A stretch of DNA of 62,267 bases from a virus (IMGVR_UViG_3300022902_000004:1-62267); one strand, 5' to 3'; positions 15,215 to 33,672 are shown, counted from the first letter of the stretch. Notes: a model not told the origin generated them from the letters alone. Numbers and translations are program-made.

Positions 15215-15342
15215 TGTGAAGTGTGGGAATCGAACCCACAGGCGCTGCCGCTATTTGTTGCTAATTTTTTTATGTCGGCTTGCACGACTCTCCTACCAAG
15301 GTCAATTGGAATCGAACCAAAAACCCAGCCATTTCGCTTCAC
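15215..15342 (-). ncRNA. tRNA-like RNA with two T-arms
   Basis: GTGAAG/CTTCAC termini; TTGG-TTCGATT-CCAA and GTGGG-TTCGATT-CCCAC; no anticodon arm. Confidence 0.45.
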
Positions 15343-15344
15343 GT

Positions 15345-15420
15345 TGGACGGGGAGGTGGGACTTGAACCCACAACCTCTTCATTCAGAGTGAAGCGTTCT
15401 GCCAATTGAACTACTCCCCA
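15345..15420 (-). tRNA. tRNA-Gln(CUG)
   Basis: CTTCA-CTCTGAA-TGAAG; CCA. Confidence 0.9.
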
Positions 15421-15429
15421 GTTATTTGT

Positions 15430-15503
15430 TGGACGGGAATTCGGGGGTCGAACCCGAGTCTGAAGAACCAAAATCTTCTGTGCTGCCCTTACACGAATCG
15501 CGA
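15430..15503 (-). tRNA. tRNA-Gln(UUG) with mismatched acceptor stem
   Basis: GAAGA-TTTTGGT-TCTTC; acceptor TCGCGAT/ATTCCCG. Confidence 0.7.
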
Positions 15504-15536
15504 ACTCTTCGTGAGCGAGACACGCATACGAAGAAA

Positions 15537-15689
15537 ATTGTGCACTCGGATTTGAACCGAGAGTGTGCTACTCCATCAACCTAGGTAGCACGGATGAGTT
15601 TCGCCATGAGGTTGTTGGTGACTGACTGGCTCAGCACCTTTCATGTTGGCTAGATCTTATCCCTGTATGCCAATTCCAGCATACACAAT
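15537..15689 (-). ncRNA. tRNA-Leu-like RNA with ~70-nt extended anticodon arm
   Basis: Acceptor ATTGTGT/GCACAAT, Leu-type D-arm, long hairpin instead of anticodon loop, variable stem GTGCTAC/GTAGCAC, T-arm; no CCA. Confidence 0.6.
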
Positions 15690-15693
15690 TTCC

Positions 15694-15770
15694 TGGCCCT
15701 CCGGGACGGAATTGAACCGCCGACGCTCGGTACTTCACACCGACGCTCTACCTAACTGAGCTACCGAAGG
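15694..15770 (-). tRNA. tRNA-Phe(GAA)
   Basis: TCGGT-GTGAAGT-ACCGA; GCCA. Confidence 0.85.
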
Positions 15771-15777
15771 ATTGTTT

Positions 15778-15993
15778 CTAACTTTCTGTTTCTGCCAATT
15801 TCAGCGCCCTGGCGTCAAATGACTCTTCATAACTTGCCGAGGGATCCGAGTATTTGTCCTCTGCAAACCACTTGCATTTTACCCTAAACGATGGTGTTCC
15901 GGTCCCGGTGGGATGCTTTTCATCGATTGTCATGAGGGGTCCGCCAGATTTCAGGCTCACCACGTCTCCAACTTCTAATACTTTGTCGCTCAT
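15778..15993 (-). CDS. YodC/DUF2158-family protein
   Basis: VGDVVSLKSGGPLMTI...CKWF. Confidence 0.8.
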   Translation of the reverse strand: MSDKVLEVGDVVSLKSGGPLMTIDEKHPTGTGTPSFRVKCKWFAEDKYSDPSASYEESFDARALKLAETES

Positions 15994-15996
15994 TGT

Positions 15997-16215
15997 TTAT
16001 CCTTTCTCGTTGTACGGGTCGTTTTCCCCGATTTTTCGCAGTGTTTTTGCTGGAAACACTTTTTGATATGGTGCGCACCCTGCGAACCAGTCACAACGCA
16101 CGACCGTCATCGAGTTCGGCCGAACGGGCTGTGTTATAAGTGCAGCAGTCATTTTCGGACCTCCGGATTTTAGTTGAACAGTATCGCCCACCTTGATTTC
16201 ACTTGACTCAGTCAT
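15997..16215 (-). CDS. YodC/DUF2158-family protein (tandem paralog)
   Basis: VGDTVQLKSGGPKMT...CDWF. Confidence 0.8.
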   Translation of the reverse strand: MTESSEIKVGDTVQLKSGGPKMTAALITQPVRPNSMTVVRCDWFAGCAPYQKVFPAKTLRKIGENDPYNEKG

Positions 16216-16273
16216 TCTTTGCTCCTTGTATGCATAGATTATATTGCAAATTGCTATGGTTTACAATAATTTC

Positions 16274-16365
16274 TGGCGGAAGTGGGCGGAGTCGAACCCC
16301 CAAGGCCCCGCAAAGGGCTCGTCGCTTTTCAAGAGCGGTGCAGTCACCTGTCTGCTTGCACTTCC
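16274..16365 (-). tRNA. tRNA-Ser(UGA)
   Basis: Loop CTTGAAA; long variable arm; GCCA. Confidence 0.85.
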
Positions 16366-17090
16366 GTTGTTTCAATTTTTATGATGTCACTTTCAAATAA
16401 GACATTGAGCTTATAAGGAAAATCCCTCCACTTACATCGATCTCTTTCGGTTTCATAACCTTTTATCTCAATGAACACACCAGCTTCAGGAAGGTAAAAA
16501 TCAGGAATGTATTTTCTTGTTCTTCCATTTTCATCGACATATTCAAAACTTTTTGAGTTTCGTTGCCAATCAATTTTCTGATTGTCCAATAGCACAGCAT
16601 ACCTTTTCTCGTATGTGCTATCAAGCCAAACTCGACCGGCAATATTAGATTCGTGCCAGGAACCTTTTCCTACACCCGATCCTGTTCTATACCCACCGGC
16701 ATTGGGATTTTTCTTCATCGTTTCAGATATCTTCGCTCGTCGCAAAATTTCTGCTTCGGGAGTTGATGCCTTGCCGGTGGATTTTCCTTTGAGTGCCGCT
16801 GAAATCTTGGCTCGGGTTGAATCGGGAACCGGTAAGCCTTTGTTCCATCCTCGTCCTTTTCCTGCATGTTTTCCTCCTCGACGGTGGGCACCTGGGCCTT
16901 TGCCATCGCAGATTTCGACATGCCTTTGTCGACGTGAATGAATATGCTTAGAGCATTTTGGGCATGTCCACGACTTTCCTCTGGCGTTTTTACTGGCCCG
17001 GGTTGTCCCGATACCACGACACACTTTTTGGTGATTTGTTAGCCCTGCTTTTGATTTTAGCTGGCGATTACATTTGTTGCACGTTTTCAT
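16344..17090 (-). CDS. NUMOD3-like + PD-(D/E)xK putative homing endonuclease
   Basis: TRAKISAALKGK repeats; LDSTYE..YIPDFYL..FIEIKG; stop codon in tRNA-Ser. Confidence 0.8.
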   Translation of the reverse strand: MKTCNKCNRQLKSKAGLTNHQKVCRGIGTTRASKNARGKSWTCPKCSKHIHSRRQRHVEICDGKGPGAHRRGGKHAGKGRGWNKGLPVPDSTRAKISAALKGKSTGKASTPEAEILRRAKISETMKKNPNAGGYRTGSGVGKGSWHESNIAGRVWLDSTYEKRYAVLLDNQKIDWQRNSKSFEYVDENGRTRKYIPDFYLPEAGVFIEIKGYETERDRCKWRDFPYKLNVLFESDIIKIETTEVQADR

Positions 17091-17145
17091 GTGTATAAGT
17101 ATCTAGTCCAAGTCAAGACCTCCACCATAAACCACTCGAACAACC

Positions 17146-17613
17146 CTAAAACTTGATTTCCATTTTAGCTTTCTTGATTTTCTCTTGATATGATTTAACA
17201 CGCTTGGCAAAATGGTATTCGAGCTCAGACGCGTACCCGGTATCCCAAAGAGTTGAGCCTCCTGTCGACTCCGGATCCATCCAGAACTTCAAGCACTTCT
17301 TTTTGCTCTTTTTCATCTCGGCAACGGTACCATACCCAAGGCAAAGCTGGTCGTCAGAGAACGGGTTTTTCTGGGGGCACTGGAGATAAGCCTCCTCAAA
17401 GGCATCCCACATTTCACGGGCCTCGATGGCCTCATTTTTGGATGCTTTTGAGTCTTTGTGGTAGCGCCTATAAAGCTCATTTGCATGAGCGCTATGGGGA
17501 TCAGGATCTTGGCCCCACCCGGGCGTGAAAGGTTTCTCACCATATTTGCGACATAGCGACTCGTACTCTCTAATATCATCCGCATGTGCTGATTTACCGC
17601 AACCCATAATCAT
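17146..17613 (-). CDS. Hypothetical protein
   Basis: ORF with RBS. Confidence 0.55.
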   Translation of the reverse strand: MIMGCGKSAHADDIREYESLCRKYGEKPFTPGWGQDPDPHSAHANELYRRYHKDSKASKNEAIEAREMWDAFEEAYLQCPQKNPFSDDQLCLGYGTVAEMKKSKKKCLKFWMDPESTGGSTLWDTGYASELEYHFAKRVKSYQEKIKKAKMEIKF

Positions 17614-17641
17614 CTCCGTCTTAGTTATTCATCATCGTTTG

Positions 17642-17717
17642 TGGCGTAACATGCAGGATTCGAACCTACGATCTCGGCTTTTCGGGCCGCGCTTTAACCA
17701 GACTAAGCCAATGTTAC
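17642..17717 (-). tRNA. Atypical tRNA (GAA anticodon, 4-bp anticodon stem, C33)
   Basis: GTAACAT/ATGTTAC-GCCA; CGGC-CCGAAAA-GCCG. Confidence 0.55.
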
Positions 17718-17805
17718 TAACCCATTACAGGGTTGACCGGTGGCCACCGGCCTGAAAAACAAATGGAATCGGTCATGAATCTCATCCATTTGAATCGTTC
17801 GCTAC

Positions 17806-17889
17806 ATGATTTTGCCGGTTTCGAACCGGTCTTCGGGCTCCAATGCTGTATGCTTAGCCCGCGTGCCGCCAAATACACCTCTTATCATG
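17806..17889 (-). ncRNA. tRNA-like element with 16-nt anticodon loop
   Basis: D-arm GTGT/GCAC, stem CGGGCT/AGCCCG, T-arm CCGG-TTCGAAA-CCGG, closing CATGAT/ATCATG. Confidence 0.5.
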
Positions 17890-18142
17890 CAGTTTTCAGG
17901 AAACCGCTCTCGAATCACCCAATTTGCTTTTACCGAAATTGCCTGTCAGGCGTCACACCTGCTCTACGTTTTTATAGCTTACAACATTGTTACGCGTTCG
18001 GTTACTTGCAAATCTTCCTCTTCGTGCGCTCTTCCTTACACTGTTTTGTCTGTACGAATCACCGGTACGTTACGCCGGACTAAGAGCCTCCATGGCCCAC
18101 GTGCAATTACGATTTGTCACACTCTTTCATTCGTTTCTATGT

Positions 18143-18229
18143 TGGTCGTAAGCAGAGGATTTGAACCTCGCCATCGACCCGCCGCGACCGGCTCGGGTAT
18201 CAACTAGGTCAGAAATGCTTCACTTTACG
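18143..18229 (-). ncRNA. Degenerate tRNA-like RNA ending ACCA
   Basis: T-arm GAGG-TTCAAAT-CCTC; CGTAA/TTACG termini; no standard D or anticodon arm. Confidence 0.4.
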
Positions 18230-18267
18230 TAATGCTCCGTAAATCTGCCTTGTCACTCGCGGTTGTT

Positions 18268-18423
18268 TGGTACTGCAAAGTGTGCTGTTATGCTAAAATA
18301 GAGGCTCTTAAGTTTGCACCCCCGCTCCCATCCTTCACCACGCCAACATATGCTGTACCGGCGCCGAATGGCATTGTGTAATCATTAAGGGATGGATACT
18401 TCTAATCCTACCCGCTTTGCAGT
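18268..18423 (-). ncRNA. ~155-nt structured RNA with 9-bp terminal stem and ACCA end
   Basis: ACTGCAAAG/CTTTGCAGT-ACCA; internal CCATCC/GGATGG. Confidence 0.45.
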
Positions 18424-18426
18424 TTC

Positions 18427-18502
18427 TGGTACACGAGACGGGATTCGAACCCGCAACTTCCTGACTGAGAATCAGGTAGACTTCCAGTTGTCCTACTCGT
18501 GC
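18427..18502 (-). tRNA. tRNA-Glu(CUC)
   Basis: CCTGA-TTCTCAG-TCAGG; ACCA. Confidence 0.9.
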
Positions 18503-18508
18503 TCATTT

Positions 18509-18585
18509 TGGCGACCCCGGACGGATTTGAACCGACGATATCCTCTTCGACAGAGAGGCGCATTACCAGACTATGCTACGGAGCC
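18509..18585 (-). tRNA. tRNA-Asp(GUC)
   Basis: CCTCT-CTGTCGA-AGAGG; GCCA. Confidence 0.9.
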
Positions 18586-18590
18586 GTACG

Positions 18591-18679
18591 AAGAGTATTG
18601 AGTGAGAGGGATTTGAACCCCCGACCTCCGGCTGCATCACCGGTGTCCTATCCAGACTAAACCACCACCGCTTACTCTT
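18591..18679 (-). ncRNA. tRNA-like RNA with 6-nt anticodon loop and extended acceptor stem
   Basis: CCGGT-GATGCA-GCCGG; extension AAGAGTA/TACTCTT; no CCA. Confidence 0.5.
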
Positions 18680-18768
18680 CTAATGTTATTGTAAATGTGG
18701 GTCGTTGGCGAGTCCTCGCGACAGCTCTTTCCAGCAACTACCTCATTTTATCTTCGCATGTTTATTTA

Positions 18769-18845
18769 CGGTACACGAGACGGGACTTGAACCCGCACAA
18801 CATCGAGAGTGAAAATCTCGGAGACTACCATTATCCTACTCGTGC
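18769..18845 (-). tRNA. tRNA-Glu(UUC)
   Basis: CGAGA-TTTTCAC-TCTCG. Confidence 0.9.
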
Positions 18846-18875
18846 ATGGGCGCTCTGGGTCGTTGGCACAACATC

Positions 18876-19031
18876 CAACCCCCTTCGTCGATTTGCGGTC
18901 GACCACGCCTGAGACCTTGCGTGAGTATCATCATGTTAACGCGGCGATACCAGGCCGCTGGTTTCCTGGTTTTGATTAGGCCAGATGTCCAGGTCTGCCC
19001 GACTCAGTTAGCCTCCCGTCGAAGAGGGTTG
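18876..19031 (-). ncRNA. Putative structured ncRNA
   Basis: 12-bp terminal stem CAACCCTCTTCG/CGAAGGGGGTTG with internal hairpins; strand inferred from context. Confidence 0.35.
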
Positions 19032-19032
19032 T

Positions 19033-19308
19033 TTATGTATAGAGATCGTAGAAGTCGTCTTCAGCGTCGTAGGCTCCGCCTGAATAAACATTGACATACC
19101 AATTTCGCATCACATCTCTGTCACCGGTGATCCTAATCACTGGCCACCCGCCAGGACCGTTAACATCCACAAGCTCAAATGTCAATTCCTCAGACGTTCC
19201 TTCCAGCTCGTTTATGTCGCCGACCCAATCGACTTCGATACTCATCATTCTGCTTGAACCAATCACTTCGTTTATAAGCTTACGCAACGTACCACGTTTT
19301 ATTTTCAT
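19033..19308 (-). CDS. Leader-family protein
   Basis: MKIKRGTLRKLINE; ATATTTA ~19327-19333. Confidence 0.7.
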   Translation of the reverse strand: MKIKRGTLRKLINEVIGSSRMMSIEVDWVGDINELEGTSEELTFELVDVNGPGGWPVIRITGDRDVMRNWYVNVYSGGAYDAEDDFYDLYT

Positions 19309-19712: not shown

Positions 19713-20561
19713 TTAGCTTATGAAATCCTTCATATATTTCTTTATAAATCTACGAAGTTGCGTGTGACTAATGCCCAATTCTGTCGCCACCGCCGACCGT
19801 GAGCCCCACTTTGTTGTGTCAGTTAGTTTTATTAACTTTTGGCGTTTTATTACTTCACTTTGATGTAATTGCGACCATGATCCTGCAACCTGCCTAATAG
19901 GCTTTGACTTTTTTTGTTTAACTGGCCTAGGTTTCTTTTGCTCATTAACCAGTTTCCCATCACGCTCGAGTATCCATCTAATGATGTGGGCACGTTTATA
20001 GTTGCCTCCACCGGAAAGGCCAACGCTTTTCAAGGCTTTTGAAATAGTTGGTTGATTTAATATCGCGTTTTTGAGTTTTTCATCGCTAACCTTTTTGGTG
20101 TTAGTTCCACGATTTCTTCCTCGCCATGTAGGCGTTTGTGAATGGCAGTTTGGGCACAGCAATCGAATGTTTTCTAATCGATTGTCGGTGTTGTCACCAC
20201 TAATGTGATCCAGCTCCAGGCTTAGCTTTCCTGACATCCATTCGTCAATTCCGCATGTTTGACATTTATATTCTGAATATCCTAATTTGACTAGAACATT
20301 CTTTACATAACCAGTTGAACATGTCGAGTTTTCTATAAAAATTTCTGTATTTGGATCCTTTAGGATTTTTCCTCGGCTCCATGCGCGTTTATTTTTTGAT
20401 GATTCAGGTAATTCTCTATACTTTGGTGTTGCCCCTGAGCAATGGCCTTTATGGGCAGACATCGCATACACGTTTTTATATGTATTTCCACAAATTGGGC
20501 AATCACATGGTATTGATTTTCTTTCCTTTCTCGTTTTTCTCATTGGCACACGCTCCAACAT
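19713..20561 (-). CDS. HNH endonuclease
   Basis: CQTCG..LELDHISGDNTDNRLENIRLLCPNCH; start re-called downstream of tRNA-Leu. Confidence 0.85.
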   Translation of the reverse strand: MLERVPMRKTRKERKSIPCDCPICGNTYKNVYAMSAHKGHCSGATPKYRELPESSKNKRAWSRGKILKDPNTEIFIENSTCSTGYVKNVLVKLGYSEYKCQTCGIDEWMSGKLSLELDHISGDNTDNRLENIRLLCPNCHSQTPTWRGRNRGTNTKKVSDEKLKNAILNQPTISKALKSVGLSGGGNYKRAHIIRWILERDGKLVNEQKKPRPVKQKKSKPIRQVAGSWSQLHQSEVIKRQKLIKLTDTTKWGSRSAVATELGISHTQLRRFIKKYMKDFIS

Positions 20562-20585
20562 ATAAGTATCGTGTTCACCAAATTT

Positions 20586-20672
20586 TAGTACCAGGGACGG
20601 GACTTGCACCCGCATGACCTAGGTCGATGGTTTTTAAGACCATTGTGTATAACTAAATTCCACCACCCTGGC
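20586..20672 (-). tRNA. tRNA-Leu(UAA)
   Basis: ATGGT-CTTAAAA-ACCAT; T-loop TGCAAGT. Confidence 0.85.
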
Positions 20673-21141: not shown

Positions 21142-21202
21142 CGGCGACATGGAAGGACTTTCACCTTCTGTTCATGGCTCTATAGACCAAAACACATGTC
21201 GC
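21142..21202 (-). ncRNA. ~60-nt D-armless mini-tRNA-like RNA
   Basis: CGACATG/CATGTCG; TGGT-CTATAGA-GCCA; GAAGG-TGAAAGT-CCTTC. Confidence 0.45.
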
Positions 21203-21245: not shown

Positions 21246-21361
21246 ATTCAATTTTCAAAGAAACCGTTTGGAGCGCTTGACTCCTTGGTTCCAAGGTTTG
21301 CACGCTGTCGTACAACTCCTTATGAATCCATTATACCACGATTTGATGCTCTTTACACTTA
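21246..21361 (-). repeat. 116-bp promoter + hairpin + boxA-like leader, copy 1
   Basis: Near-identical to 28063-28178; TTCTTTGAAAATTGAAT. Confidence 0.8.
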
Positions 21362-21370: not shown

Positions 21371-22402
21371 CTAATTTCGGGTTCCTGCCTGAAACTCTTG
21401 AATGTAGTGTGTACGGGCAGCCGAAGCCACCTTCTTCGCAACATTTTTCCACTCAAAGGTCTCAGCCTCTTCAATCTCAACTGCACATTCACGCTGGACG
21501 TCTTGACATACCCACCTGAGGTAGTCGCCGACACTTCGCATGTTTGGCTCGAGACCAAGTTCAGCCAGGTATTCGAAACCTTGCTCCAAGCGTCGGGGTG
21601 TCACAGCAAACTCGAGGAACTCCTGGACGTTGGCAAGCTCTTCTGGCGTTGCCTGTACAGTTTTCTTGCTCTTCTGAGTCTTATGCTTCTCACCTTTCGT
21701 CTTGAAGAACAGGTCGGAGTTACCAAGTTGGTCACCAAGCGGAGTCCAGACTAATCCTTCTCCCATGCCTGCCAGCCCGAACAATGCGCCCCATGGGCAC
21801 AAAACCTCAACAGCTAGCGTCTTCTTCGTTGCCTCTTCTGCTGCCTTTGTGACAGAGTCAAGATCATCGAGGTCGACTTCAAGCTCAGCAGAACCTGCCT
21901 TCAGGATGCTGTAGATACTCACATCTTCGTAGTAGTCATGAAAGTTGAAAACCTCGAGGTAACGAGACTTCTCCCCTTCAGTGACAGCAGCCGCAAAGAT
22001 GACCCACTGTTTTACTGGGAGCTGGTTGATCGCCATTCCTTTTTGAACGCCGTTGCCAATCCACTCACCAAACAATGTCAATGTTGCGTCTTCATGCAGG
22101 TTGTACGCCACCCGAAATTGCTTTTCAAGTCCTCGAATGGATACCTGTACTGCAACATGGTGGACGAATGCAGCGAAACCGTTGTTATCATTTTGAAGTG
22201 ACAACACTGTGTTACGACTCTGAGGCACTAATCCCTCTTTCGTGCACGCGACACCGGCATTTGTTCCATGGAGCTTCACAGTTCCTTTGAACTTCGTCAC
22301 ACCTCGAACTTTGTATCGCTCAGGCACCTCGGGATCCTTGTTAACCTTTCGAACGTACCGAGACACCTGATATAAGGCGTCAACATGTGTATACTTTTTC
22401 AT
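21371..22402 (-). CDS. RNA ligase, Rnl2-like
   Basis: TVKLHGTN, QSRN, FGEWIG, GEGLVW, FKTKGEKH. Confidence 0.75.
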   Translation of the reverse strand: MKKYTHVDALYQVSRYVRKVNKDPEVPERYKVRGVTKFKGTVKLHGTNAGVACTKEGLVPQSRNTVLSLQNDNNGFAAFVHHVAVQVSIRGLEKQFRVAYNLHEDATLTLFGEWIGNGVQKGMAINQLPVKQWVIFAAAVTEGEKSRYLEVFNFHDYYEDVSIYSILKAGSAELEVDLDDLDSVTKAAEEATKKTLAVEVLCPWGALFGLAGMGEGLVWTPLGDQLGNSDLFFKTKGEKHKTQKSKKTVQATPEELANVQEFLEFAVTPRRLEQGFEYLAELGLEPNMRSVGDYLRWVCQDVQRECAVEIEEAETFEWKNVAKKVASAARTHYIQEFQAGTRN

Positions 22403-23258: not shown

Positions 23259-23978
23259 TCAATCTAGGTTTTCAAAGTTTGCGCACGAAGACTCCAAAAA
23301 TTGCTGTAAATCACCCATGCGGAATAGTTGATCTAGATCTTCTTTGAAGGCAATCCCTAACTTTACGTCAAGTTGCCCTTTGATACATTTCATTTTCTTT
23401 TTTGCTGCAGGTGAAAAGTAACCCTTTATTTCGATAAATACGTCGAAATCGTTTAGGTATATATCAGGATGATATCGTCTTGTGATACCATTCTCATATT
23501 TTAGAACATGACCTGACGACCATTGAATTAGCTTATCATTGCAAAATTCTGCGAAAGACTTTTCCCATGTTCCCCTCAAGGTAAATGTTTCGCCATTTAG
23601 ATTTGCTACGTTGAAATATTTTACATGTTGAAAACTTCCAAACCCGGGCTCATTCATTTTATCGGATTGAATTTTGCTTAGTTTTTCTTTTGTTTCTCTT
23701 GAAAGTTTTCTGTTCTGTTTTTGTAACCTTCCTGACAAAAATCCTTTCTTTCTTTTTTCATTCGCCCCAAGCTTGATTGCTTTTATTTCTTCAGGTGACT
23801 TATTTCTAAGCCAGTTTTTCCCATAACATGGGTTTAATTTCCCTTTTCTGGCCCGAAGATAGTCTAACGACACGGCGTTTTTATTGTTTTTGCACCTTAC
23901 TTGGTGTTGACGTTGTGAATTTGCATTTTTACATTGCTTATTGCAAAACTCACACAAAAACTTTTCTTGTTTTTTCAT
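23259..23978 (-). CDS. Zn-finger + PD-(D/E)xK putative homing endonuclease
   Basis: CEFC..H..RC; RGTWE..YHPDIYL..FIEIKG. Confidence 0.8.
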   Translation of the reverse strand: MKKQEKFLCEFCNKQCKNANSQRQHQVRCKNNKNAVSLDYLRARKGKLNPCYGKNWLRNKSPEEIKAIKLGANEKRKKGFLSGRLQKQNRKLSRETKEKLSKIQSDKMNEPGFGSFQHVKYFNVANLNGETFTLRGTWEKSFAEFCNDKLIQWSSGHVLKYENGITRRYHPDIYLNDFDVFIEIKGYFSPAAKKKMKCIKGQLDVKLGIAFKEDLDQLFRMGDLQQFLESSCANFENLD

Positions 23979-25270: not shown

Positions 25271-25278
25271 ATGTCTAA

Positions 25279-25441
25279 TCCGGGAAGCAGGATTCGAACC
25301 TGCGAACGGCTTCGCAGCGGCAGGTAATTAGTCTGCTTGCTAATCCGTCACTGATAGCATATGATTGCCCGACGTCAATTATATTGTATAGCAAAAAGTA
25401 TGTTATCTATCAGTTGCCTTAAGCCTCTCAGCCATTCCCGG
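25279..25441 (-). ncRNA. Class II tRNA-like RNA with ~49-nt anticodon insertion and enlarged variable arm
   Basis: CCGGGAA/TTCCCGG; ACTGATAG/CTATCAGT enclosing insert; perfect T-arm. Confidence 0.65.
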
Positions 25442-25498
25442 TCGGAATTGAACTGGCATTTTGGTTCATGCCGGTGATCAATCCCGCGTTTTGTTTAG

Positions 25499-25586
25499 AA
25501 CGGAAAGTGGGATTCGAACCCACGGGGTAGCTAGTATCCCACGATTGTTCATAAATCGTTGCCTTAAGCCTCTCAGCCATTTCCGT
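25499..25586 (-). ncRNA. Class II tRNA-like RNA with 6-bp anticodon stem (paralog of 25279-25441)
   Basis: Identical D-arm TGGCTGAGAGGCTTAAGGCAAC; ACGATT-TATGAAC-AATCGT. Confidence 0.6.
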
Positions 25587-25595: not shown

Positions 25596-25670
25596 TGGTA
25601 CGCCCGGGTGGAGTTGAACCACCGCCTAATCCTTATCAGAGATTTGTACTCACCATTATACTACGGGCGT
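25596..25670 (-). tRNA. tRNA-Ile(GAU)
   Basis: AATCT-CTGATAA-GGATT; ACCA. Confidence 0.9.
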
Positions 25671-26305
25671 GCATCGTAAAGATCAATGTAGTCTTTACTG
25701 TAGTTTTGTGTGACATAATTTATGTATTGCGACATTTCTTTTTTGTACAAGACAGTAATTTCATGTGGAAATGCCTTCAGTTTTTCTTCAAATTGCTTTG
25801 TTTTGTAACCTTTGATTTCTATGTAATGATTATCAATTTTGAAGTCAGGATAGTACTTTCGTGTGAAACCTTTATACTGATACTCAAACCCAGATAAGTT
25901 TCTTTCGAAAGCAATTCCTTTATCAATATGAAAAATGACCCAGGCAAGCTCCCAGCTTGAATCGCACCAATAGCCTTTGTACCATCCGGATTTTCCAACG
26001 CCGGCGCCTTTTCTTGGCCCGCCCGTTTTTCCTTTTAATGAAGTACTAATGTTTTTGCGCCAATTTGAATGTTCTTTGTAATGCTGTCGACAATAACCGG
26101 TCATCGTTTGATGATGAAGTTTTTTATTGCATATCAAGCAATTGCGAATCTTATCCTTGTTGAAGTTGTATGGTCGTCCATCAGGGCCCAAAAAGTTTTT
26201 ATACTGCGCCAAATGTGTTGCTCGACAAGAGTCAGAGCAATATACCGCTGTATCGTATCTTGGGACAAACTTTTTTCCGCAACATTTGCATATATTTTCA
26301 TTCAT
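25661..26305 (-). CDS. Zn-finger + PD-(D/E)xK putative homing endonuclease
   Basis: GWYKGYWCDSSWELAW..YYPDF..YIEIKG, close paralog of 1258-2235; stop codon in tRNA-Ile. Confidence 0.8.
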   Translation of the reverse strand: MNENICKCCGKKFVPRYDTAVYCSDSCRATHLAQYKNFLGPDGRPYNFNKDKIRNCLICNKKLHHQTMTGYCRQHYKEHSNWRKNISTSLKGKTGGPRKGAGVGKSGWYKGYWCDSSWELAWVIFHIDKGIAFERNLSGFEYQYKGFTRKYYPDFKIDNHYIEIKGYKTKQFEEKLKAFPHEITVLYKKEMSQYINYVTQNYSKDYIDLYDARP

Positions 26306-26350
26306 GTTTATAACTATCTGCAAATTCTAAAAGCCATATCAGGCGGAGTA

Positions 26351-26457
26351 AATTAGGTGTGTGAGGGTGCGAGCCTCAGGGCGGCGTATACTTCCTTGTT
26401 CAATACCATATCGATGGTTGGACTCGAACCAACATCCCCACTTATGCACATCTAATT
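26351..26457 (-). ncRNA. Circularly permuted tRNA-like / YrlA-like RNA
   Basis: Terminal stem AATTAG/CTAATT enclosing T-arm, short hairpin, then D-like arm. Confidence 0.45.
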
Positions 26458-26533
26458 GGCTTACAAGGCGGGATTTGAACCCGCGACACCGAAGACCGTC
26501 GCCCTCAGCTCTACCTGACTGATTTACATGTAA
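26457..26533 (-). ncRNA. tRNA-like RNA with non-standard anticodon loop
   Basis: GAGGGC-GACG-GTCTTC arm; normal T-arm; GCCA. Confidence 0.5.
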
Positions 26534-27063: not shown

Positions 27064-27717
27064 TTATTTGAACTTCATCTTTCTTCCTTTTTTCCAACCT
27101 TTGTTGAGGAATGAATCAAGTTCGTTTTTGTCGATTTTCATGGACCTCTTTTCTTTTAGATTGTAAATCCAAACTTTTCCGTATTGGGAGTTTCCTTTTC
27201 CCCGTTGATGAACCGCATTTGCGGCACCAATCTTTTTCTTTGTTGCTTCTTTGTGCTTTCTTCCTGTCCAATCAAAAGGTTTTAGTTTTCCTTCTTTATG
27301 GAGCCGTTTGAAGCTCTCAGAGCAACTTTGTTTCTTACGAGCAACCCATTCTGGATTTGACCAATTTGCCTCGTTCATGGCAATGGCTGCTTTTTTGTTC
27401 TTTTCTTTTCGGGTTAGCTCGTTGTTGTTGATGCGTTCCCACCCATCACCATGGCCGCCGAGAGACAAGTTGTATACGTCCTCCCGCAAAAGAAACGATT
27501 CATTAACGACTTCCTTTTCCTTTTCATACATTTCTGCAGAGTTCTTTAGAAAGTGAACATACTCCTTTGTGAAGTTTTCGATACCATGTTTTTCGATGGC
27601 CCTAGAAATCAACACGCCAGAACCCATATAATGGTCATTAAGATTTTTCGTCTTATGACAACCAATGTATATTTTGCCGTTCGTCCTATTCGTTATTTTG
27701 TAAATCGTGTAGTACAT
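27064..27717 (-). CDS. GIY-YIG homing endonuclease (Seg-like, NUMOD3)
   Basis: TIYKITN..KIYIG..YMGSG; HKEATKKKIG. Confidence 0.9.
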   Translation of the reverse strand: MYYTIYKITNRTNGKIYIGCHKTKNLNDHYMGSGVLISRAIEKHGIENFTKEYVHFLKNSAEMYEKEKEVVNESFLLREDVYNLSLGGHGDGWERINNNELTRKEKNKKAAIAMNEANWSNPEWVARKKQSCSESFKRLHKEGKLKPFDWTGRKHKEATKKKIGAANAVHQRGKGNSQYGKVWIYNLKEKRSMKIDKNELDSFLNKGWKKGRKMKFK

Positions 27718-28062: not shown

Positions 28063-28178
28063 ATTCAATTGTCAAAGAAACCGTTTGGAGCGCTTGACCC
28101 CTTGGTTCCAAGGTCTGCACATTATCGTGCAACCCCTTATGAATCCATTATACCATGATTTTACGTTCTTTACACTTA
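28063..28178 (-). repeat. 116-bp promoter + hairpin + boxA-like leader, copy 2
   Basis: TTCTTTGACAATTGAAT immediately before tRNA-Lys(CUU). Confidence 0.8.
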
Positions 28179-28748: not shown

Positions 28749-28755
28749 GATCAGA

Positions 28756-28826
28756 ATGAAGCATCAGGACTTGAACCTGAGTCTCTGGGTGTATGTGCCC
28801 AGCGCGTGACCACTAGCTATACTTCA
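28756..28826 (-). ncRNA. tRNA-like RNA with 8-nt anticodon loop
   Basis: CTGGG-CACATACA-CCCAG; TGAAGTA/TGCTTCA; T-arm. Confidence 0.5.
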
Positions 28827-28935
28827 CTCTTTATTCTTGTTACGTAAAGAACCTGCATGCTTCGAAACTAGCAGACGACCTTGCTTATGTGTTAGCTCAC
28901 ACCTGGTTTTAGCATTGATGTGATGCAAGATATTG

Positions 28936-29024
28936 CGGAGCTGGGGACAGGATTCGAACCTGCGTTGTGGTTGCCCAACCGGATTACAAATCCGGTGCCT
29001 TCGACCATCTCGGCTCACCCCAGC
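28936..29024 (-). tRNA. tRNA-Thr(UGU) with long variable arm
   Basis: CCGGA-TTTGTAA-TCCGG; TTG-GGCAACCA-CAA extra arm. Confidence 0.8.
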
Positions 29025-29637
29025 GTCGTTTTTTCGTTACGAGCAACCTGTGTGCTCTAAAATAATTTCCTCCTTTTGGAGTAAGTCCCAGTGATAAGAG
29101 TGCTTGTCGGACAGTCGAATGTGATTCTAACGCAACAAGAAACTCTGCGTCAGTCGTTCGTTTTCGTATGCCATCCTTTCTTTTATTTCGACCTCGCCAT
29201 GTCTCGGTTAGAGCATGACAATTTGGACACAGAAGTTCCAAGTTTTCTCTATCATTATTTTGGTTGTTTCCATCAATATGTTCAATTTCTAATGGAATCA
29301 ACTCATCTTGCCATTTTTTGTTTTTGCAACGACGACAAGCATGCGCTTGCTCATCGAATATTCGCATACGCTGGCGCTTGGGTGGTAAACTATCGAAAGG
29401 TAGGTCGACATAATGTGCTATCCTATTTTCTCGATTTGTTTTTCCGCCTTTCACTGCACCTGCGCGTTGCGCATTAGTAGACGTGGTTCGCACCCGTCCT
29501 GTAAGCGATTGAGAAACCTTTTTATTGATTTCCTCCCTACTTTGTTTTGTTGAAAAACCTCTTGCGCACTTGGCACCACAGAATCGTCCGCTGCCATATT
29601 CACCTATATGCGTATCATTACAATTTTCACAATTCAT
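28984..29637 (-). CDS. HNH endonuclease
   Basis: LEIEHIDGNNQNNDRENLELLCPNCH; stop codon in tRNA-Thr anticodon loop. Confidence 0.85.
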   Translation of the reverse strand: MNCENCNDTHIGEYGSGRFCGAKCARGFSTKQSREEINKKVSQSLTGRVRTTSTNAQRAGAVKGGKTNRENRIAHYVDLPFDSLPPKRQRMRIFDEQAHACRRCKNKKWQDELIPLEIEHIDGNNQNNDRENLELLCPNCHALTETWRGRNKRKDGIRKRTTDAEFLVALESHSTVRQALLSLGLTPKGGNYFRAHRLLVTKKRRWGEPRWSKAPDL

Positions 29638-29687: not shown

Positions 29688-29821
29688 TGGTGGGTCCACC
29701 AGGACTCGAACCTGGAACCAACTCATTAATCTCGGAAAATCAGGTTCTGCCCCTTTTCCTGTTTTCACAGGTATCTATTTTTTCCCAAAGTGAGCTGCGC
29801 TACCAACTGCGCCATGGACCC
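29688..29821 (-). tRNA. tRNA-Lys(UUU) interrupted by 58-nt anticodon insertion (29729-29786)
   Basis: Removing the insert gives GCTCA-CTTTTAA-TGAGT; intact acceptor, D and T arms; ACCA. Confidence 0.8.
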
Positions 29822-30032
29822 ATTTTTGTTGTTATACGATTCGAACGGCAAACTTGGGTGCTGCCGATAGAATCACGTATTTTTGTTTCTTTCCGATTTT
29901 GACAGCGTAATGTTTCCACACCTGTCGCGAAGAATCGGCAGTCAAAAGATTGTACCATGTGAAGCCAGCGCTGTCGCCGGCGGTCAATGTATTTTTGATC
30001 GAAACCATGATGTTCTCCAATCGATGTGAAGC

Positions 30033-30254
30033 TTAGCCTCGAGGAATGATGTCCCACAAGCTGCGGACCACAGTTCCAGCATCGGTCAATTTGACCGTCA
30101 CTTCAAACCTGGGCAAGCCGACCACCTTAGTGACCACACCTGTTTTACCAGAGTTTCGAAGCTGGACTTTGTCGCCAATCTCGGGCCAGTATTTTTCGCC
30201 AGCTTTCCGAGCTTTCCGGTCAGGCTGGTGGCTTTTCAGTTTTGCCTTTTTCAT
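30033..30254 (-). CDS. Small SH3/KOW-like protein
   Basis: IGDKVQLR..GKTGVV. Confidence 0.5.
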   Translation of the reverse strand: MKKAKLKSHQPDRKARKAGEKYWPEIGDKVQLRNSGKTGVVTKVVGLPRFEVTVKLTDAGTVVRSLWDIIPRG

Positions 30255-30334
30255 TCCTGGCTCCTGTTTTGCAGGCCGGCATCCCCGGCGACATATACAT
30301 TATACCATGAAATGAGACGTTTTACACGAAGCTG

Positions 30335-30685
30335 TTAGCTATTGACGTAAACAACTCGTGCCGCGTCATCAATCAAATCAGAAACCGCAGGCTTCACATT
30401 CCACTCAGGGGCTTCCAGTTTCATTAGAGGCACGTGATGGGCTTCGAAACGTCGCAAGTCTTTGATTACATCTGGCCAAAAGCGGTGCTCGCCTTCATCT
30501 TTGTTTGACGTGAAAAAATAAAACTTGTGGCGACCACCGGCAGCACCACTTTTTTTAGTACCTACGAATGTCAGTACATGTGTATGGTCGATAATCTGGC
30601 GTCCTGGAAATCTCGTGTCGGCTGACTGCCCTCGGCCGAATCCAAAAACGTATTGTTCGCCTTGCGTTAATTGACTTACTCGCAT
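30335..30685 (-). CDS. Hypothetical protein
   Basis: RBS and ATATTTA upstream. Confidence 0.55.
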   Translation of the reverse strand: MRVSQLTQGEQYVFGFGRGQSADTRFPGRQIIDHTHVLTFVGTKKSGAAGGRHKFYFFTSNKDEGEHRFWPDVIKDLRRFEAHHVPLMKLEAPEWNVKPAVSDLIDDAARVVYVNS

Positions 30686-30730
30686 GTTGTGTTCCTTTGT
30701 TCCTATAAATATAGGCGACTTTCTATTTGT

Positions 30731-30807
30731 GGGGGTGGAAACTGAGATTTGAACTCAGGTCTCCGGATTCACAGTCCAGCATCTTAACCAATTAGACGAT
30801 AACCACC
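30731..30807 (-). tRNA. tRNA-His(GUG)
   Basis: CTGGA-CTGTGAA-TCCGG; genomic G-1 and C73. Confidence 0.85.
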
Positions 30808-31328
30808 ACTGATTCGTCAAGGGCCCCATCCTTACCCCTGTCATCGCCGCACCCCTGACTGTCGATTCATGGTACAGCTCCTATATTTTCTCTCTTATTC
30901 GATTGTCAATGCAGGTTGGTGCGCTTGGCTCCGTACCTTGTGAATCAATTATACCATGATTCTTCGCTCTTTACACTCAAAATCTCACTTTATTTGGTGT
31001 ATTCGATTTTTATTTCTAACCATTCGTTTCGTAACCATTTTCTTGTGTTGTCCATCAAAACGTATGAGGATAGTGCCCCGTAATTGTCCCGGGTTTGCAG
31101 GACGAGACCTAGCGAGCCTGTGTTCGTGTTGGCCACGATCGACCCGATTTCATAATACTCAGTCGTCATCGTTCCTTCCTCAAAAACAAATCAGGGTATG
31201 GGCCGGCGTAGCAAAACCTGCGACTGTCTTCCAACGTATACACCAAGTCAACATGCCCATCAGGATCCAGCATGATTTCCACAACAAGGCCGATATTTCC
31301 TGAGGCGTCTATTACAAGATCGCCAACA

Positions 31329-31553
31329 TCATAGTTTTCCATGCCTAACACTTCCTTTGTGCTCTATAAAGCGTGTGTCCGGATACCAACCTTTGACGCC
31401 GTCAATCAAGACCTCGACCTGGGCGTACCCGCCTGGGTCATCGATGTCGACAACCAGCCCGATTTGTTTTGTCACCTTGCAAATCACGATGGCGCCGATT
31501 GCGTAATCGGGTTCCTTCCACTTTAGTGGGTCGCGAGGTTTGCTATTTTCCAT
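31329..31553 (-). CDS. Small SH3/KOW-like protein
   Basis: IGAIV..QIGLVVDI; similar to neighbour 31166-31351. Confidence 0.5.
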   Translation of the reverse strand: MENSKPRDPLKWKEPDYAIGAIVICKVTKQIGLVVDIDDPGGYAQVEVLIDGVKGWYPDTRFIEHKGSVRHGKL

Positions 31554-31870
31554 TCCTCGATTTTCCTCCCGAGCACGAGATGGGCGTCCATCATGTTTGC
31601 AATGTATTCTGGAGTTGCGTCTTGCAGGCGTAAACCCTTTTCTTGTCGTCTTACAACACCATCATCAGCTGTTGCAACCATCCAGCCAGGACCTGGAACA
31701 GGATTGCCTCTGTCTTCCATCTGTTTGTGCCAGCTCCTGGTATCAGGAATCGTGACCTTTTCAATAAGAAGCCCTGGTTGCTTGTGGAAAATGTGTTTTC
31801 CTGTCTTAGTTTTTGTGCTGCGCTTTTTGCTAATCAGCACAACCAAATCGCCTACCTTGTAATGGCTCAT
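31523..31870 (-). CDS. Hypothetical protein
   Basis: YKVGDLV; operon. Confidence 0.55.
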   Translation of the reverse strand: MSHYKVGDLVVLISKKRSTKTKTGKHIFHKQPGLLIEKVTIPDTRSWHKQMEDRGNPVPGPGWMVATADDGVVRRQEKGLRLQDATPEYIANMMDAHLVLGRKIEEWKIANLATH

Positions 31871-32142
31871 TCCTCACCTCGAAGTGCTTTTGCAGAAGGA
31901 CTCTCAAACTCGGCCTCGATTTCTCGCTCAGCTTCTCGGAGTGACCTGTCATATTCGGTTCCTGATTTATCCACAAACTTTGCATATCTGGCCAGCTCAA
32001 TCGCCAGCTTCATCGCATTTTTTGCCTTCATATGAAATGGAATGCCCCCTGGGCGAGCCTGTGTTTTGACCTTAAGGATCACAGATTCATCCTGAGATGT
32101 CACGTCAAGCGACCATTGAGGCCCAAAATCAATAAATGCCAT
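31867..32142 (-). CDS. Hypothetical protein
   Basis: Downstream of promoter ~32163-32192. Confidence 0.55.
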   Translation of the reverse strand: MAFIDFGPQWSLDVTSQDESVILKVKTQARPGGIPFHMKAKNAMKLAIELARYAKFVDKSGTEYDRSLREAEREIEAEFESPSAKALRGEE

Positions 32143-32777
32143 TGTATCTCTCCAGTGTATTCATTCTATCATGATTTGATGTATTTTACACGATGCGTGC
32201 ACGTTACTGGAATATTCTTTCTGGCAATCCGTCGAGAGCCTTTTTAGCAGCCCACATATCCTCGCCGTACATTTGAATGATGTAATGTGGGGCAGACTCA
32301 ATCGACTCGTCAACCATCACCCATTCACACCCATTTAGAACCGCCACCGGAACTTTGTTACCTCGGTAGAGTAAGTCTAAACTGCCTGTTCGTTCAACCC
32401 ATCCTCGCTTTGTGCTAACGATTGGGTATTCTGTGCTGATATATTCTCTTGGGCATGCCACCAGGTAAGTTTGGTCATCGCTGACACATCCTGTCATTGC
32501 GATTATCATTACGAAGATGGCAAGTAGACGTTTCACAAATCGCGTTGGCGTCGTCGAGCGTCTTCTTTTCGTCGGTCGACCAAACTGTCCTGGGCGTTTG
32601 CAACATCTCGCAAGAGCTTCCTGAATTTCGGGCTGATACCACGTTTCTCCAGGAATCTTGCGGTGACCCATTTTAGGTCCGCATCAGCCGAGATAAGCTT
32701 GGTGATTATTTTGTTCATGTTTGCCATTGTATTCCACCTGCTCAGTGAATGATGTGCTATGACACATCGGGTTACAA

Positions 32778-33167
32778 TTAATCGTAGTACGAGAAACTAC
32801 GGGGTGCACGACGGCGAGCACGTTTGGCCTTTGATGCTCCGCCGCTGACTAGTACTGCCAGTACTTGCTCGACTGACGTGCCATATTGAGCTGCAAATTC
32901 ATCGTCAAGCGATGTGACAATATTGCCAAGCTGGCTATCACGGTCTGTAAGCTTGAGCCATGGCTGCCCCTTGTGGGTTCTGGGCTGGTATTGAATATAC
33001 GGAATGTCTTCCGGTAATACCTGCATCGTAAATGCCTTTGAGAGGGCTGTCAGCTCATTTTTATTCGGGCTGAGTGCCGTGGCACTATCTCCCGCATCAG
33101 AGCCAAAATCGTATCTACGACCAGACTGTTCAACCAACTGCCTAATTTGTTTTCGCGTGATCTTCAT
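32778..33167 (-). CDS. Leader-family protein, paralog of C-terminal domain of 48045-48728
   Basis: MKITRKQIRQLVE; shared L.DR..QLGN...GT.VE.VLA.LV..GA. Confidence 0.7.
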   Translation of the reverse strand: MKITRKQIRQLVEQSGRRYDFGSDAGDSATALSPNKNELTALSKAFTMQVLPEDIPYIQYQPRTHKGQPWLKLTDRDSQLGNIVTSLDDEFAAQYGTSVEQVLAVLVSGGASKAKRARRRAPRSFSYYD

Positions 33168-33238
33168 AGTCCCTCCTGCGGATTATGTTACTTTGTTCGT
33201 GACGTGCAAACCATTTGCTGTCACTTATTTATTTTTCT

Positions 33239-33589
33239 TCATTCAAACATGTCACTTGAGAAAAAGCGTAGAACCAATGGTTCCTCTGATGCATAATCAA
33301 ATTGGACTGGCATCATAAATATTTCCTCACTAATGACAAATGTATTTGTTACGTCGCCCTCACCTTTCATGAGCTCGAGCACACATTTCACTTTTTGACC
33401 GTGTAACTTCATGTATTTTTTAATGTCGTCCTTCAACGGGACATACATTTCAAAACTAACATGCCCAACCATTGGGTTGGCACCAACCCTGCGAATCAGT
33501 GACGCATCAATTAGTGTTTCAGATGCGTCGTCGCTTAGTACGTTGAGTCGAAACTGAAACTCTTTTTTCGCTTCAAACTGCGTTGTCAT
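33239..33589 (-). CDS. Possible divergent tail-tube-like protein
   Basis: FEAKKEFQF..FEMYVP..LEL..G.V..DYASEEP resembles gp19-like pattern; weak. Confidence 0.35.
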   Translation of the reverse strand: MTTQFEAKKEFQFRLNVLSDDASETLIDASLIRRVGANPMVGHVSFEMYVPLKDDIKKYMKLHGQKVKCVLELMKGEGDVTNTFVISEEIFMMPVQFDYASEEPLVLRFFSSDMFE

Positions 33590-33605
33590 TTATTCCTCTT
33601 ATCTG

Positions 33606-33672
33606 TGGATGGGTGTCCAGGAGTCGAACCTGGCACGCTGGCTACGTGTTTCATCCAATAGAAACACACCCA
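33606..33672 (-). ncRNA. 67-nt compact tRNA-like RNA (GCC loop, UCCA end)
   Basis: TGGGTGT/ACACCCA; GTTTC/GAAAC; ACG-TAGCCAG-CGT; no variable loop. Confidence 0.55.

Follow-up and report, generated by a model that had tools for sequence, protein, structure and literature searches.

The DNA considered here, called the window throughout, is a stretch of 62,267 nucleotides (nt) that makes up the first 62 kb of IMGVR_UViG_3300022902_000004, a 318,267-bp IMG/VR virus record with a CheckV completeness of 93%, whose source is a marine jumbo phage (318-kb genome). Between 1 and 38.6 kb it carries an array of 39 transfer RNA (tRNA) genes called by ARAGORN, all on the minus strand and together covering all 20 amino acids (the Rfam tally for the array is 34-38). 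Set among them are about a dozen tRNA-shaped RNAs that keep the acceptor/T-arm half of a tRNA without normal decoding, and it is these elements that concern us here (Table 1).

A sequence-only reading of positions 15,215 to 33,672 had listed ten such elements. All ten are present where it had placed them, on the minus strand and co-oriented with the 39 ARAGORN tRNAs, and every anomaly of the anticodon arm that it claimed was seen, be it odd loops and stems, long hairpins or arm-less forms. Four additional elements were found (26405-26456, 15216-15342, 10664-10739 and 29688-29821), of which 10664 lies outside this region and belongs to the same class. The observation of non-decoding tRNA-like RNAs is thus confirmed and extended. 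What had been described as one panel of mimics is real, but it is heterogeneous: it comprises a real tRNA-Lys, cloverleaves that lack U33, class II scaffolds of the Leu type (15537) or Ser type (25279 and 25499) and scaffolds with long or odd arms (26457, 17806), minimal forms (33606, 21142, 26417) and degenerate-looking copies (18591, 15215), and one member, 26457, travels with a homing-endonuclease cassette that is absent from one lineage.

Table 1. Coordinates of the tRNA-like elements, of neighbouring genes and of a repeated motif (ORF, open reading frame)
Feature	Position	Strand	Description
33606	33606..33672	-	minimal 63-nt tRNA-like RNA with encoded U-CCA tail; 7-bp acceptor stem, 5-bp D-like hairpin with GG in the loop, T-arm; 4-bp/5-nt mini-hairpin at the anticodon-arm site
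29688	29688..29821	-	tRNA-Lys(UUU) with 58-nt insert (29729-29786) within the anticodon; encoded CCA
28756	28754..28827	-	cloverleaf, 8-nt anticodon loop, A33, no CCA
26457	26457..26533	-	73-nt tRNA-like RNA with encoded G-CCA tail; anticodon and variable region swapped for an 11-bp hairpin with GACG tetraloop
26417	26405..26456	-	orphan T-arm minihelix right after the CCA of 26457, upstream of homing-endonuclease ORF 25661-26323
25499	25498..25586	-	class II, Ser-type D-arm, long variable arm, 6-bp anticodon stem, A33, no CCA
25279	25276..25441	-	162-nt tandem paralog of 25498-25586 (24-nt D-arm block identical); perfect 7-bp acceptor stem, ~65-nt hairpin at the anticodon position, ~46-nt variable region, T-arm
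21142	21144..21202	-	minimal three-way junction: 8-bp acceptor-like stem, central hairpin, 5-bp/7-nt hairpin
18591	18586..18680	-	tRNA-like, 6-nt anticodon loop; acceptor stem broken, with an outer stem of 8 bp around the element
17806	17804..17890	-	cloverleaf-like domain with 16-nt loop in a ~700-nt conserved non-coding stretch (17718-18430)
17642	17642..17717	-	tRNA-Phe(GAA)-like, C33, 4-bp anticodon stem plus G.A mismatch, encoded CCA
15537	15538..15688	-	151-nt Leu-type class II scaffold, no CCA; 7-bp acceptor stem extendable to 10 bp, tRNA-Leu-like D-arm, ~70-nt arm at the anticodon position, 27-nt variable hairpin, T-arm
15215	15216..15342	-	127 nt, two T-arm-like motifs, 6/7 acceptor stem; T-arm identical to that of tRNA-Trp
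10664	10664..10739	-	76-nt rearranged Arg(CCU)-like RNA; canonical anticodon hairpin before a D-loop-like segment
HNH homing-endonuclease genes	19713-20615, 28984-29637		interleaved in the tRNA array
GIY-YIG gene	27064-27717		interleaved in the tRNA array
Endonuclease-I-like genes	16344-17090, 23259-23978, 25661-26323		interleaved in the tRNA array
RNA ligase gene	21371-22402		inside the tRNA array
Thg1, AAA_33 kinase and RlaP nucleotidyltransferase domain genes	~40300-43417	-	just upstream of the array; from L066 gene calls
TGGTATAAT copies	11534, 21330, 24834, 28147, 30299, 30948, 35426, 39714, 45276, 46870, 47977	-	candidate promoter

The T-arm was searched for with a strict motif, a 5-bp stem closed by G-C together with a T[TG]C[AG]ANN loop. 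Along the entire 318,267-bp genome, the minus strand contains 41 such motifs and the plus strand 0, and only about 2 copies fall beyond the tRNA cluster (1-38.6 kb) and the gene for transfer-messenger RNA (tmRNA). Nine or ten T-arms are orphans outside ARAGORN genes, at 33617, 29699, 26468, 26417, 25287, 18606, 15545, 15223, 10671 and, dubiously, 4556. In 33610-33672, 29692-29821 and 25280-25441 the 7 nt that follow the T-arm find a 7-bp upstream partner with Watson-Crick pairs throughout; the acceptor partner in 15538-15688 forms 7 bp with one G-U, and that in 26461-26533 pairs at 6 of 7 positions.

Some of the elements still score as tRNAs. At the 29-bit gathering cut-off of the Rfam tRNA family (RF00005), matches are obtained for 29688 (56.4 bits), 17642 (52.2), 25499 (39.7) and 28756 (38.0), while 18599 (28.3) and 26460 (28.2) stay just under it, and 33606, 25279, 15537, 17806, 21142, 15215 and 10664 give no match to this family at E<=10. 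Unconstrained minimum-free-energy (MFE) folds of 33606 (z -2.6), 21142 (z -3.7) and 28756 are tRNA-like shapes.

Conservation and change among related phages

Among GenBank phages no close relative was found by megablast, and blastn gave only tRNA and homing-endonuclease fragments; IMG/VR held only one 13.8-kb contig of a relative. Relatives were sought via exact-protein look-ups, starting from the proteins beside the elements. Copies of the same phage in other samples that are 100% identical are uninformative. The diverged metagenomic lineages recovered are B2 (contigs L060, L061 and L075, ~76-86% nucleotide identity to the window), C (L079 and L080, 84-92%) and D (L096), to which L049 (~86-90%) and L078 are added; the recovered contigs cover their genomes only in part.

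As a neutral yardstick we took the third codon positions of eight flanking genes (1675 codons) between the window phage and lineage B2. These are 61% identical, and second positions 91%. Against this, the elements are 86-99% identical in the same comparison (33606, 92.5%; 29688, 99.3%; 28756, 94.6%; 26457, 97.4%; 26417, 98.1%), a range close to that of orthologous canonical tRNAs (82-100%), and identity falls at or near the borders of 29688 and 15537. Hence 33606, 29688, 28756, 26457, 26417, the scaffold of 25279, 15537, 17806 and 10664 do not behave as neutral pseudogenes would. No homolog of 18591, 21142 or 15215 was found in the relatives' recovered contigs, which represent partial genomes in which these loci are rearranged; 18591, 15215 and perhaps 21142 may be decaying copies or recombination scars. 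The population polymorphisms in the window lineage, 11 sites with 0 in the elements, are uninformative.

The sequence-only reading had held that stem pairing is kept while the anticodon arm varies, in a manner that random decay would not predict, and that uniform decay of the stems among homologs, free of covariation, would speak against it. For most elements the former holds, given their identities far above neutral, but it does not extend to the three elements lacking homologs. In seven well-defined elements, 26 substitutions fall in loops, 8 are one-sided changes that keep a pair, 1 is a double compensatory change and 2 break a pair, such that pair-keeping stem changes outnumber pair-breaking ones by 9 to 2. 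Uniform decay is thus not what the homologs display, though two-sided covariation is rare: in 33606, where 100% of the stem cells are paired across four alleles, the only stem change is a U-A to U.G replacement, and consequently 0 of its 21 pairs covary at this depth.

What is kept is the top half of a tRNA with its elbow, made up of acceptor stem and T-arm, to which several elements add a GG-bearing D-loop. In 33606, 26457, 29688 and 17642 a CCA is encoded right after the discriminator, as in most canonical genes here, and is conserved in relatives. By comparison of the aligned sequences, the equivalent of the anticodon arm is the fastest-changing part of the elements, which is the reverse of canonical tRNAs. 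In 13 canonical ortholog pairs only 2 changes fall within 91 anticodon-loop positions (both due to one Glu isoacceptor switch) as compared to 77 elsewhere, whereas the three genes that lack U33 show loop changes at 1 of 7, 3-4 of 8 and at least 5 of 7 positions, and the arms of 25499 and 25279 are replaced outright.

Nearly all elongator tRNAs carry U33. Here it is present in 36 of the 39 ARAGORN tRNAs, and the exceptions are the genes beginning at 17642, 25498 and 28754 (elements 17642, 25499 and 28756), which carry C, A and A, respectively, and whose orthologs likewise have no U33. The other elements have loops of 4, 5, 6, 8 or 16 nt or insertions of 58-70 nt. As encoded, no element combines a 5-bp anticodon stem with a loop of 7 nt that has U33.

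Similar elements occur elsewhere in these phages. Lineage B2 has a private ~115-nt tRNA-like element after tRNA-His (L060:6565-6684), with no counterpart in the window, that contains a pair of T-arm motifs and an encoded A-CCA and whose acceptor stem pairs at 6 of 7 positions. Further lineage-private elements lie in L096 (at 6985 and 7139), L049 (at 25 and 2325) and L075 (at 6663). A distant relative with a 322-kb genome, IMGVR_UViG_3300015050_001523 (G001), whose RNA ligase is 44% identical, has about 8 orphan T-arms between 95 and 215 kb, several of which have bodies of 55-143 nt and a fully paired acceptor stem of 7 bp, and two of them adjacent on the opposite strand at 127.3-127.6 kb. None of these G001 elements is homologous in sequence to those of the window.

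The elements individually

The element 29688 is, as far as its sequence tells, a genuine tRNA-Lys(UUU) with an optional insert. It is the only Lys-UUU gene of the genome, and ARAGORN calls it only if introns are allowed. In lineages B2 and D it is identical at 133 of 134 positions, including all 58 of the insert, while the flanks are unalignable. In lineage C (L080:3680-3740), the same tRNA-Lys gene exists exactly without the 58-nt insert and has the loop CTTTTAA, which makes the insert a presence/absence polymorphism. We considered a group I intron, but the insert is below the ~140-200 nt of such introns and neither possible boundary ends in G; the Rfam intron and small-ribozyme families likewise gave no match. 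Repeated or mobile elements of the kind of miniature inverted-repeat transposable elements were dismissed as a source of the inserts because every insert is unique in its genome and is missing from the other lineages.

Of the cloverleaves without U33, 17642 had been listed as a mimic. It does lack U33, but it behaves like a true tRNA-Phe isodecoder: its B2 ortholog keeps GAA, has G33 and, in the anticodon stem, has replaced a C-G pair by A-U in a compensatory manner. The array also holds a canonical Phe gene, at 15694-15770. The B2 ortholog of 28756 has a single difference in the body and a 7-nt loop that is read as GAA with A33; in lineage D, the acceptor stem (with a compensatory A-U to G-C change) and the T-arm are kept around a completely different interior. 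In a similar manner, the body of 25499 is conserved in B2 while the entire anticodon arm is replaced, and it is read as UUC with A33 there as compared to UGA in the window phage and in lineage D. The lineage D copy keeps the arm and has a mismatched acceptor stem.

The tandem paralog of 25499, 25279, differs from it by two compensatory pairs in the acceptor stem and two in the T-stem. In B2 its scaffold is 94-96% identical around an unrelated inner ~45 nt of the hairpin, and lineage D lacks the element. Excision of the hairpin was evaluated as a route to a canonical anticodon loop, but no boundary works. The D-arm of 15537 shares a 13-nt identity with tRNA-Leu 14764-14849; the element is 93.3% identical in B2, with invariant stretches of 27 nt, next to an adjoining canonical tRNA-Phe at 82%, and the tip of its long arm is remodelled between the two phages.

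Among the forms with short or odd arms, 33606 is known from four alleles that are 92.5-98.5% identical and retain the CCA; all 5 of its B2 changes are in loops. The two changes that separate 26457 from its B2 ortholog (75 of 77 identical) both keep a pair (A-U to G.U and G.U to A-U). In lineage D, 26457, 26405-26456 and the endonuclease gene 25661-26323 are missing as one block; this endonuclease belongs to a mobile family with 747 matches and is a poor synteny anchor. The minihelix 26405-26456 is identical at 51 of 52 positions in L060. Between L060 (11765-11816) and L061 (8976-9025), which are otherwise identical B2 contigs, only a ~45-nt patch with the orphan T-arm differs, and the patch of L061 holds a different T-arm whose stem is re-paired. 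This swap suggests a short tract of gene conversion or else a variant target site of an endonuclease. The minimal 21142, which follows a promoter and leader and precedes tRNA-Asn by 4-6 nt, has a 5-bp/7-nt hairpin whose loop deviates from the T-loop consensus, and its locus is rearranged in L049 and L075.

The domain 17806 is 86.4% identical in B2, with a conserved loop and a compensatory C-G to U-A change in the T-stem. A plus-strand ORF across it (17806-18207) was rejected as coding, for it has 8 synonymous and 35 non-synonymous codon changes that are spread evenly over codon positions. The surrounding stretch 17718-18430, between tRNA-Glu(CUC) and the tRNA-Phe with C33, contains no minus-strand ORF. 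It has long runs of 97-99% identity between the window phage and B2, a 124-nt insertion with another T-arm-like hairpin in the window phage alone, the motif AGCATA(A)CAGCA twice (17844 and 18283) and an ordinary MFE (z -0.5). By analogy, it may be a large non-coding RNA comparable to RNAX of phage T5.

The two degenerate-looking elements are of a different kind. In B2, the segment holding 18591 and two neighbouring tRNAs is replaced, and 18591 is probably a decaying gene. At the position that corresponds to 15215, which abuts a ribosome-binding site, B2 has a tRNA-Arg(ACG), and 15215 is probably a recombination remnant. By comparison, 10664 is 94-96% identical in B2, and changes in its T-stem and acceptor stem improve pairing (G.U to G-C).

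Gene neighbourhood and possible roles

Besides the endonuclease genes and the RNA ligase gene listed in Table 1, small ORFs are interleaved among the tRNAs of the array. Taken with the RNA ligase gene, the Thg1, AAA_33 kinase and RlaP genes point to a set of tools for the repair of tRNA ends, and the placement of these genes, with the ligase in the array and the others just upstream, speaks for a heavy investment in tRNA repair. The tmRNA is encoded outside the window at G000:C1:299618-299977 on the minus strand, with ANDNSEYSYAQAA as the tag peptide given by ARAGORN. One array member, tRNA-Gln(UUG) at 15430-15502 on the minus strand, has 2 acceptor-stem mismatches, and its match to the Rfam tRNA model (34 bits) is confined to positions 6-65; it shares no homology with its counterpart in B2.

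The sequence TGGTATAAT occurs in 11 exact copies, on the minus strand every time, and is a candidate promoter of the extended -10 type. Two of them, at 21330 and 28147, sit in a repeated leader of ~116 nt (21246-21361 and 28063-28178, 90% identical). Scans for consensus promoters and terminators gave no excess over shuffled expectation. We regard the copies as probable phage promoters, and since they always face the minus strand, the tRNAs, the ORFs and the tRNA-like elements probably share transcription units.

How, then, might the elements have come to be retained? It may be that most of them are tRNA-derived genes that have left decoding and are kept by selection as structured RNAs, a reading whose standing we would call evenly balanced. 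Its starting point is what is observed, namely conservation, maintained stems, an anticodon arm that is hypervariable and the loss of U33. Transcription from promoters on the minus strand would cover the elements along with the phage tRNAs and the small ORFs. The acceptor stem and T-arm, together with the D-loop GG elbow, are recognised by RNase P, by the enzymes of 3′ trimming and CCA addition and by those that modify the T-loop. Because the top half is the target of these enzymes, the elements are expected to be excised and stabilised like tRNAs; their processing and stability are inferred from what is established about these enzymes. The site of the anticodon arm would then be free of ribosomal constraint and could hold a lineage-specific payload, be it a short non-standard loop, a loop without U33 or a long hairpin.

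As to what such RNAs might do, our leading guess, which goes beyond the alignments, is that they compete with real tRNAs for tRNA-binding factors in a conflict between phage and host over tRNA. We are led to it by the investment in tRNA repair, by the concentration of change around position 33 and by the class II scaffolds; candidate factors would be anticodon nucleases, other tRNA-targeting toxins and the phage's own RNA-repair enzymes. The sequence-only reading had gone further towards decoys, and we hold tentatively, as a possibility on the less likely side, that the set is an evolving repertoire of non-decoding tRNA mimics that acts as an RNA-level counter-defence. The conserved top halves would pass as tRNAs to host immunity that targets tRNAs, and the fast-changing payloads, including class II scaffolds of the Leu or Ser type and a series of tRNA-Phe(GAA)-like loops in which U33 has given way to C, G or A, would turn them into uncleavable competitors. 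If this were true, it would assign a function to the tRNA-like stable RNAs of phages T5 and T4.

Several points weigh against selection as the keeper of these RNAs. The comparison is shallow, with two to five lineages, so that genuine double-sided covariation will be rare, and in 33606 none was found. Three elements (18591, 21142, 15215) are without a homolog in the relatives. The genomes are mosaics rich in homing endonucleases, and local gene conversion could inflate identity. Lineage D manages without 26457, 26417 and 25279 and has a copy of 25499 with a broken acceptor stem, which makes these elements dispensable. The earlier suggestion that the loops serve as antisense or guide sequences found no backing in the phage's own genome, where complementarity does not exceed chance and the longest perfect match is 14 nt. 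Finally, the elements are known from sequence alone and none is tied to a specific nuclease or binding protein.

Other explanations take up parts of the same evidence, and each of them probably holds for some members of the set. The feature that is best kept, acceptor stem plus T-arm, is also the minimal substrate of RNase P and RNase Z, and the elements might be mere punctuation, that is, cleavage modules that cut tRNA-mRNA transcripts and set mRNA ends, with the released RNAs having no function. The locations of several elements fit this: 33606 stands alone between two ORFs with its CCA 17 nt ahead of the next start codon, 15215 adjoins a ribosome-binding site, and 26457 and 26417 precede the homing-endonuclease ORF and are gained or lost with it. 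The free replacement of the interior of 28756 and of the inner hairpin of 25279 would be expected as well. Yet a bare minihelix would suffice for cleavage, whereas here sequence conservation extends to the GG elbows of the D-loop and to the long arms (15537, the loop of 17806, 26457), the CCA is encoded and conserved, and most of the array is already punctuated by real tRNAs. For the set as a whole we deem punctuation unlikely. Somewhat less probable still, in our estimate, is that the elements are by-products of gene turnover, functionless pseudogenes or chimeric scars left by duplication, by conversion through homing endonucleases and by recombination at the T-arm and D-arm boxes. At least 8 elements are 86-99% identical where silent sites reach only 61%, substitutions avoid or preserve stems, and identity drops at or near the borders of 29688 and 15537 and does not extend outward as conversion tracts would. 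Turnover nevertheless leaves its marks in an array that is packed with HNH, GIY-YIG and endonuclease-I-like genes and whose gene order differs among close lineages: 18591, 21142 and 15215 are lineage-specific, 15215 has the T-arm of tRNA-Trp, 25499 is chimeric in lineage D, its acceptor stem being mismatched there, the patch swap at 26417 resembles a conversion tract, and each lineage as well as the distant G001 carries extra orphans of its own.

A narrower proposal concerns only the three near-canonical genes without U33 (17642, 25499 and 28756), which could be isodecoders that still decode and whose altered position 33 or loop resists the anticodon nucleases of the host. The near-universality of U33 in elongator tRNAs argues against this, as does the presence of canonical Phe and Ser(UGA) genes. 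Furthermore, the scaffold of 25499 reads UGA in the window phage and lineage D and UUC in B2, and 28756 has an 8-nt loop in the window phage, such that neither has a stable decoding identity. On the other side, 17642 keeps GAA, encodes CCA and shows compensatory changes in the manner of a tRNA, with only position 33 differing, C in one phage and G in the other, the B2 ortholog of 28756 reads GAA with A33, and anticodon-loop mutants predicted to escape VapC, PrrC and colicins have been described (PMC10264068). Taken for all three genes, we find the proposal improbable.

Comparison with known systems

The phenomenon is not wholly new, since it has precedent in phage T5. The T5 record (NC_005859.1) annotates RNA1 and RNA2 as "tRNA-like stable RNA with unknown functions" and RNA3 as "putative tRNA-like RNA", and its tRNA region lists five further stable RNAs (RNAI, III, IV, 2H and X, the last 719 nt). 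They lie on one strand amid about 24 tRNA genes and HNH homing-endonuclease genes. The window elements are alike in that they, too, share a strand with the phage tRNA genes around them and combine the top half of a tRNA with a middle that does not decode. The correspondence extends to individual designs. T5 RNA1 (144 nt) is built like 15537, with an acceptor stem, a D-arm of the tRNA-Leu type, an arm of ~60 nt where the anticodon arm would be, a variable hairpin and a T-arm that fits the consensus; RNA2, with its pair of T-arm motifs, resembles 15216-15342 or 26405-26533; RNA3 (73 nt) and RNAI end in CCA; and RNAX, beside a tRNA, parallels 17718-18430. Sequence homology, however, is limited to the tRNA-Leu-type D-arm, and the T5 RNAs have been seen experimentally as stable RNAs, whereas for the window we have only the DNA sequence to go by.

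With a covariance model of T5 RNA1 built from 9 Demerecviridae homologs, 15526-15690 reaches 29.6 bits (E 5e-6) and the B2 ortholog of this element 27.6 bits. Since a canonical tRNA-Leu of G001 reaches 31.7 bits with the same model, we claim for 15537 a shared design and a tRNA-Leu ancestry and not membership of the RNA1 family. RNA1 itself (30501-30644 in T5) is conserved in 487 phage records, with 74-100% identity across Demerecviridae, and its homologs show compensatory changes and an invariant apical loop. In nearly all of these records it is unannotated or overlapped by calls of hypothetical coding sequences.

In phage T4, RNAC and RNAD (species 1 and 2) are small stable RNAs of the tRNA cluster that are expressed late and whose function is unexplained (PMC9697503). 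There are only two of them as compared to about a dozen here, and we liken them by description and not by architecture. The YrlA or Y RNA-like RNAs mimic the T-arm, D-arm and acceptor of tRNAs, some are encoded by phages, and they are substrates of RNase P, of CCA addition and of tRNA modification enzymes (PMC4201824). They join their tRNA-like module to a stem that binds Ro60, whereas no match to TROVE (PF05731) was obtained in the 318-kb genome under a search in which control genomes matched. As the best score with the YrlA family (RF02553) was 21.3 bits against a cut-off of 69, overlapped true tRNAs and came without a Ro60 partner, an identity with YrlA was discarded. Rfam gave no credible match either for those elements that do not score as tRNAs or for 17700-18450; the highest scores (YrlA 21 bits, tmRNA 17 bits over the T-arm only, P26 13 bits) fall well short of the cut-offs.

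Of relevance to the genes without U33 are phage tRNAs whose anticodon loops are mutated at or near the sites where nucleases cut, and which are predicted to evade VapC, PrrC and colicins in this way (van den Berg et al. 2023, PMC10264068). The decoding loop of those tRNAs still has the standard 7 nt and their anticodon is stable, whereas in the window the loops have 6, 8 or 16 nt or the arms are replaced, and anticodons change between lineages. The idea of escape may apply to 17642, but it leaves unexplained those loops that have the wrong length and those anticodons that differ from lineage to lineage. Pseudogenes and fragments of tRNAs are also known from tRNA arrays and integration sites (PMC9897764), and the T5 tRNA-Gln2 is flagged as a pseudogene; some copies have broken stems, a feature seen also in 18591, 15215 and the lineage D copy of 25499, while most window elements differ from pseudogenes in being conserved far above neutral with their stems kept.

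In this context, the window presents a large panel of tRNA-like stable RNAs in a marine jumbo phage that is unrelated to T5 and T4. Its natural variants show that selection keeps the acceptor stem, the T-arm and the elbow, while the position of the anticodon arm, including U33, is left or driven to vary. A vague category that is often dismissed as "pseudo-tRNAs" thereby becomes testable as processed, non-decoding mimics in the tRNA conflict between phage and host defence, and T5 offers a tractable model for this; its RNA1 recurs, mostly unannotated, in 487 sequenced phage records. For annotation there is a warning, in that tRNA finders miss some such genes and mislabel others as ordinary tRNAs. 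The panel is a new, unusually large and comparatively informative case of a known, functionally unexplained class of phage RNA.

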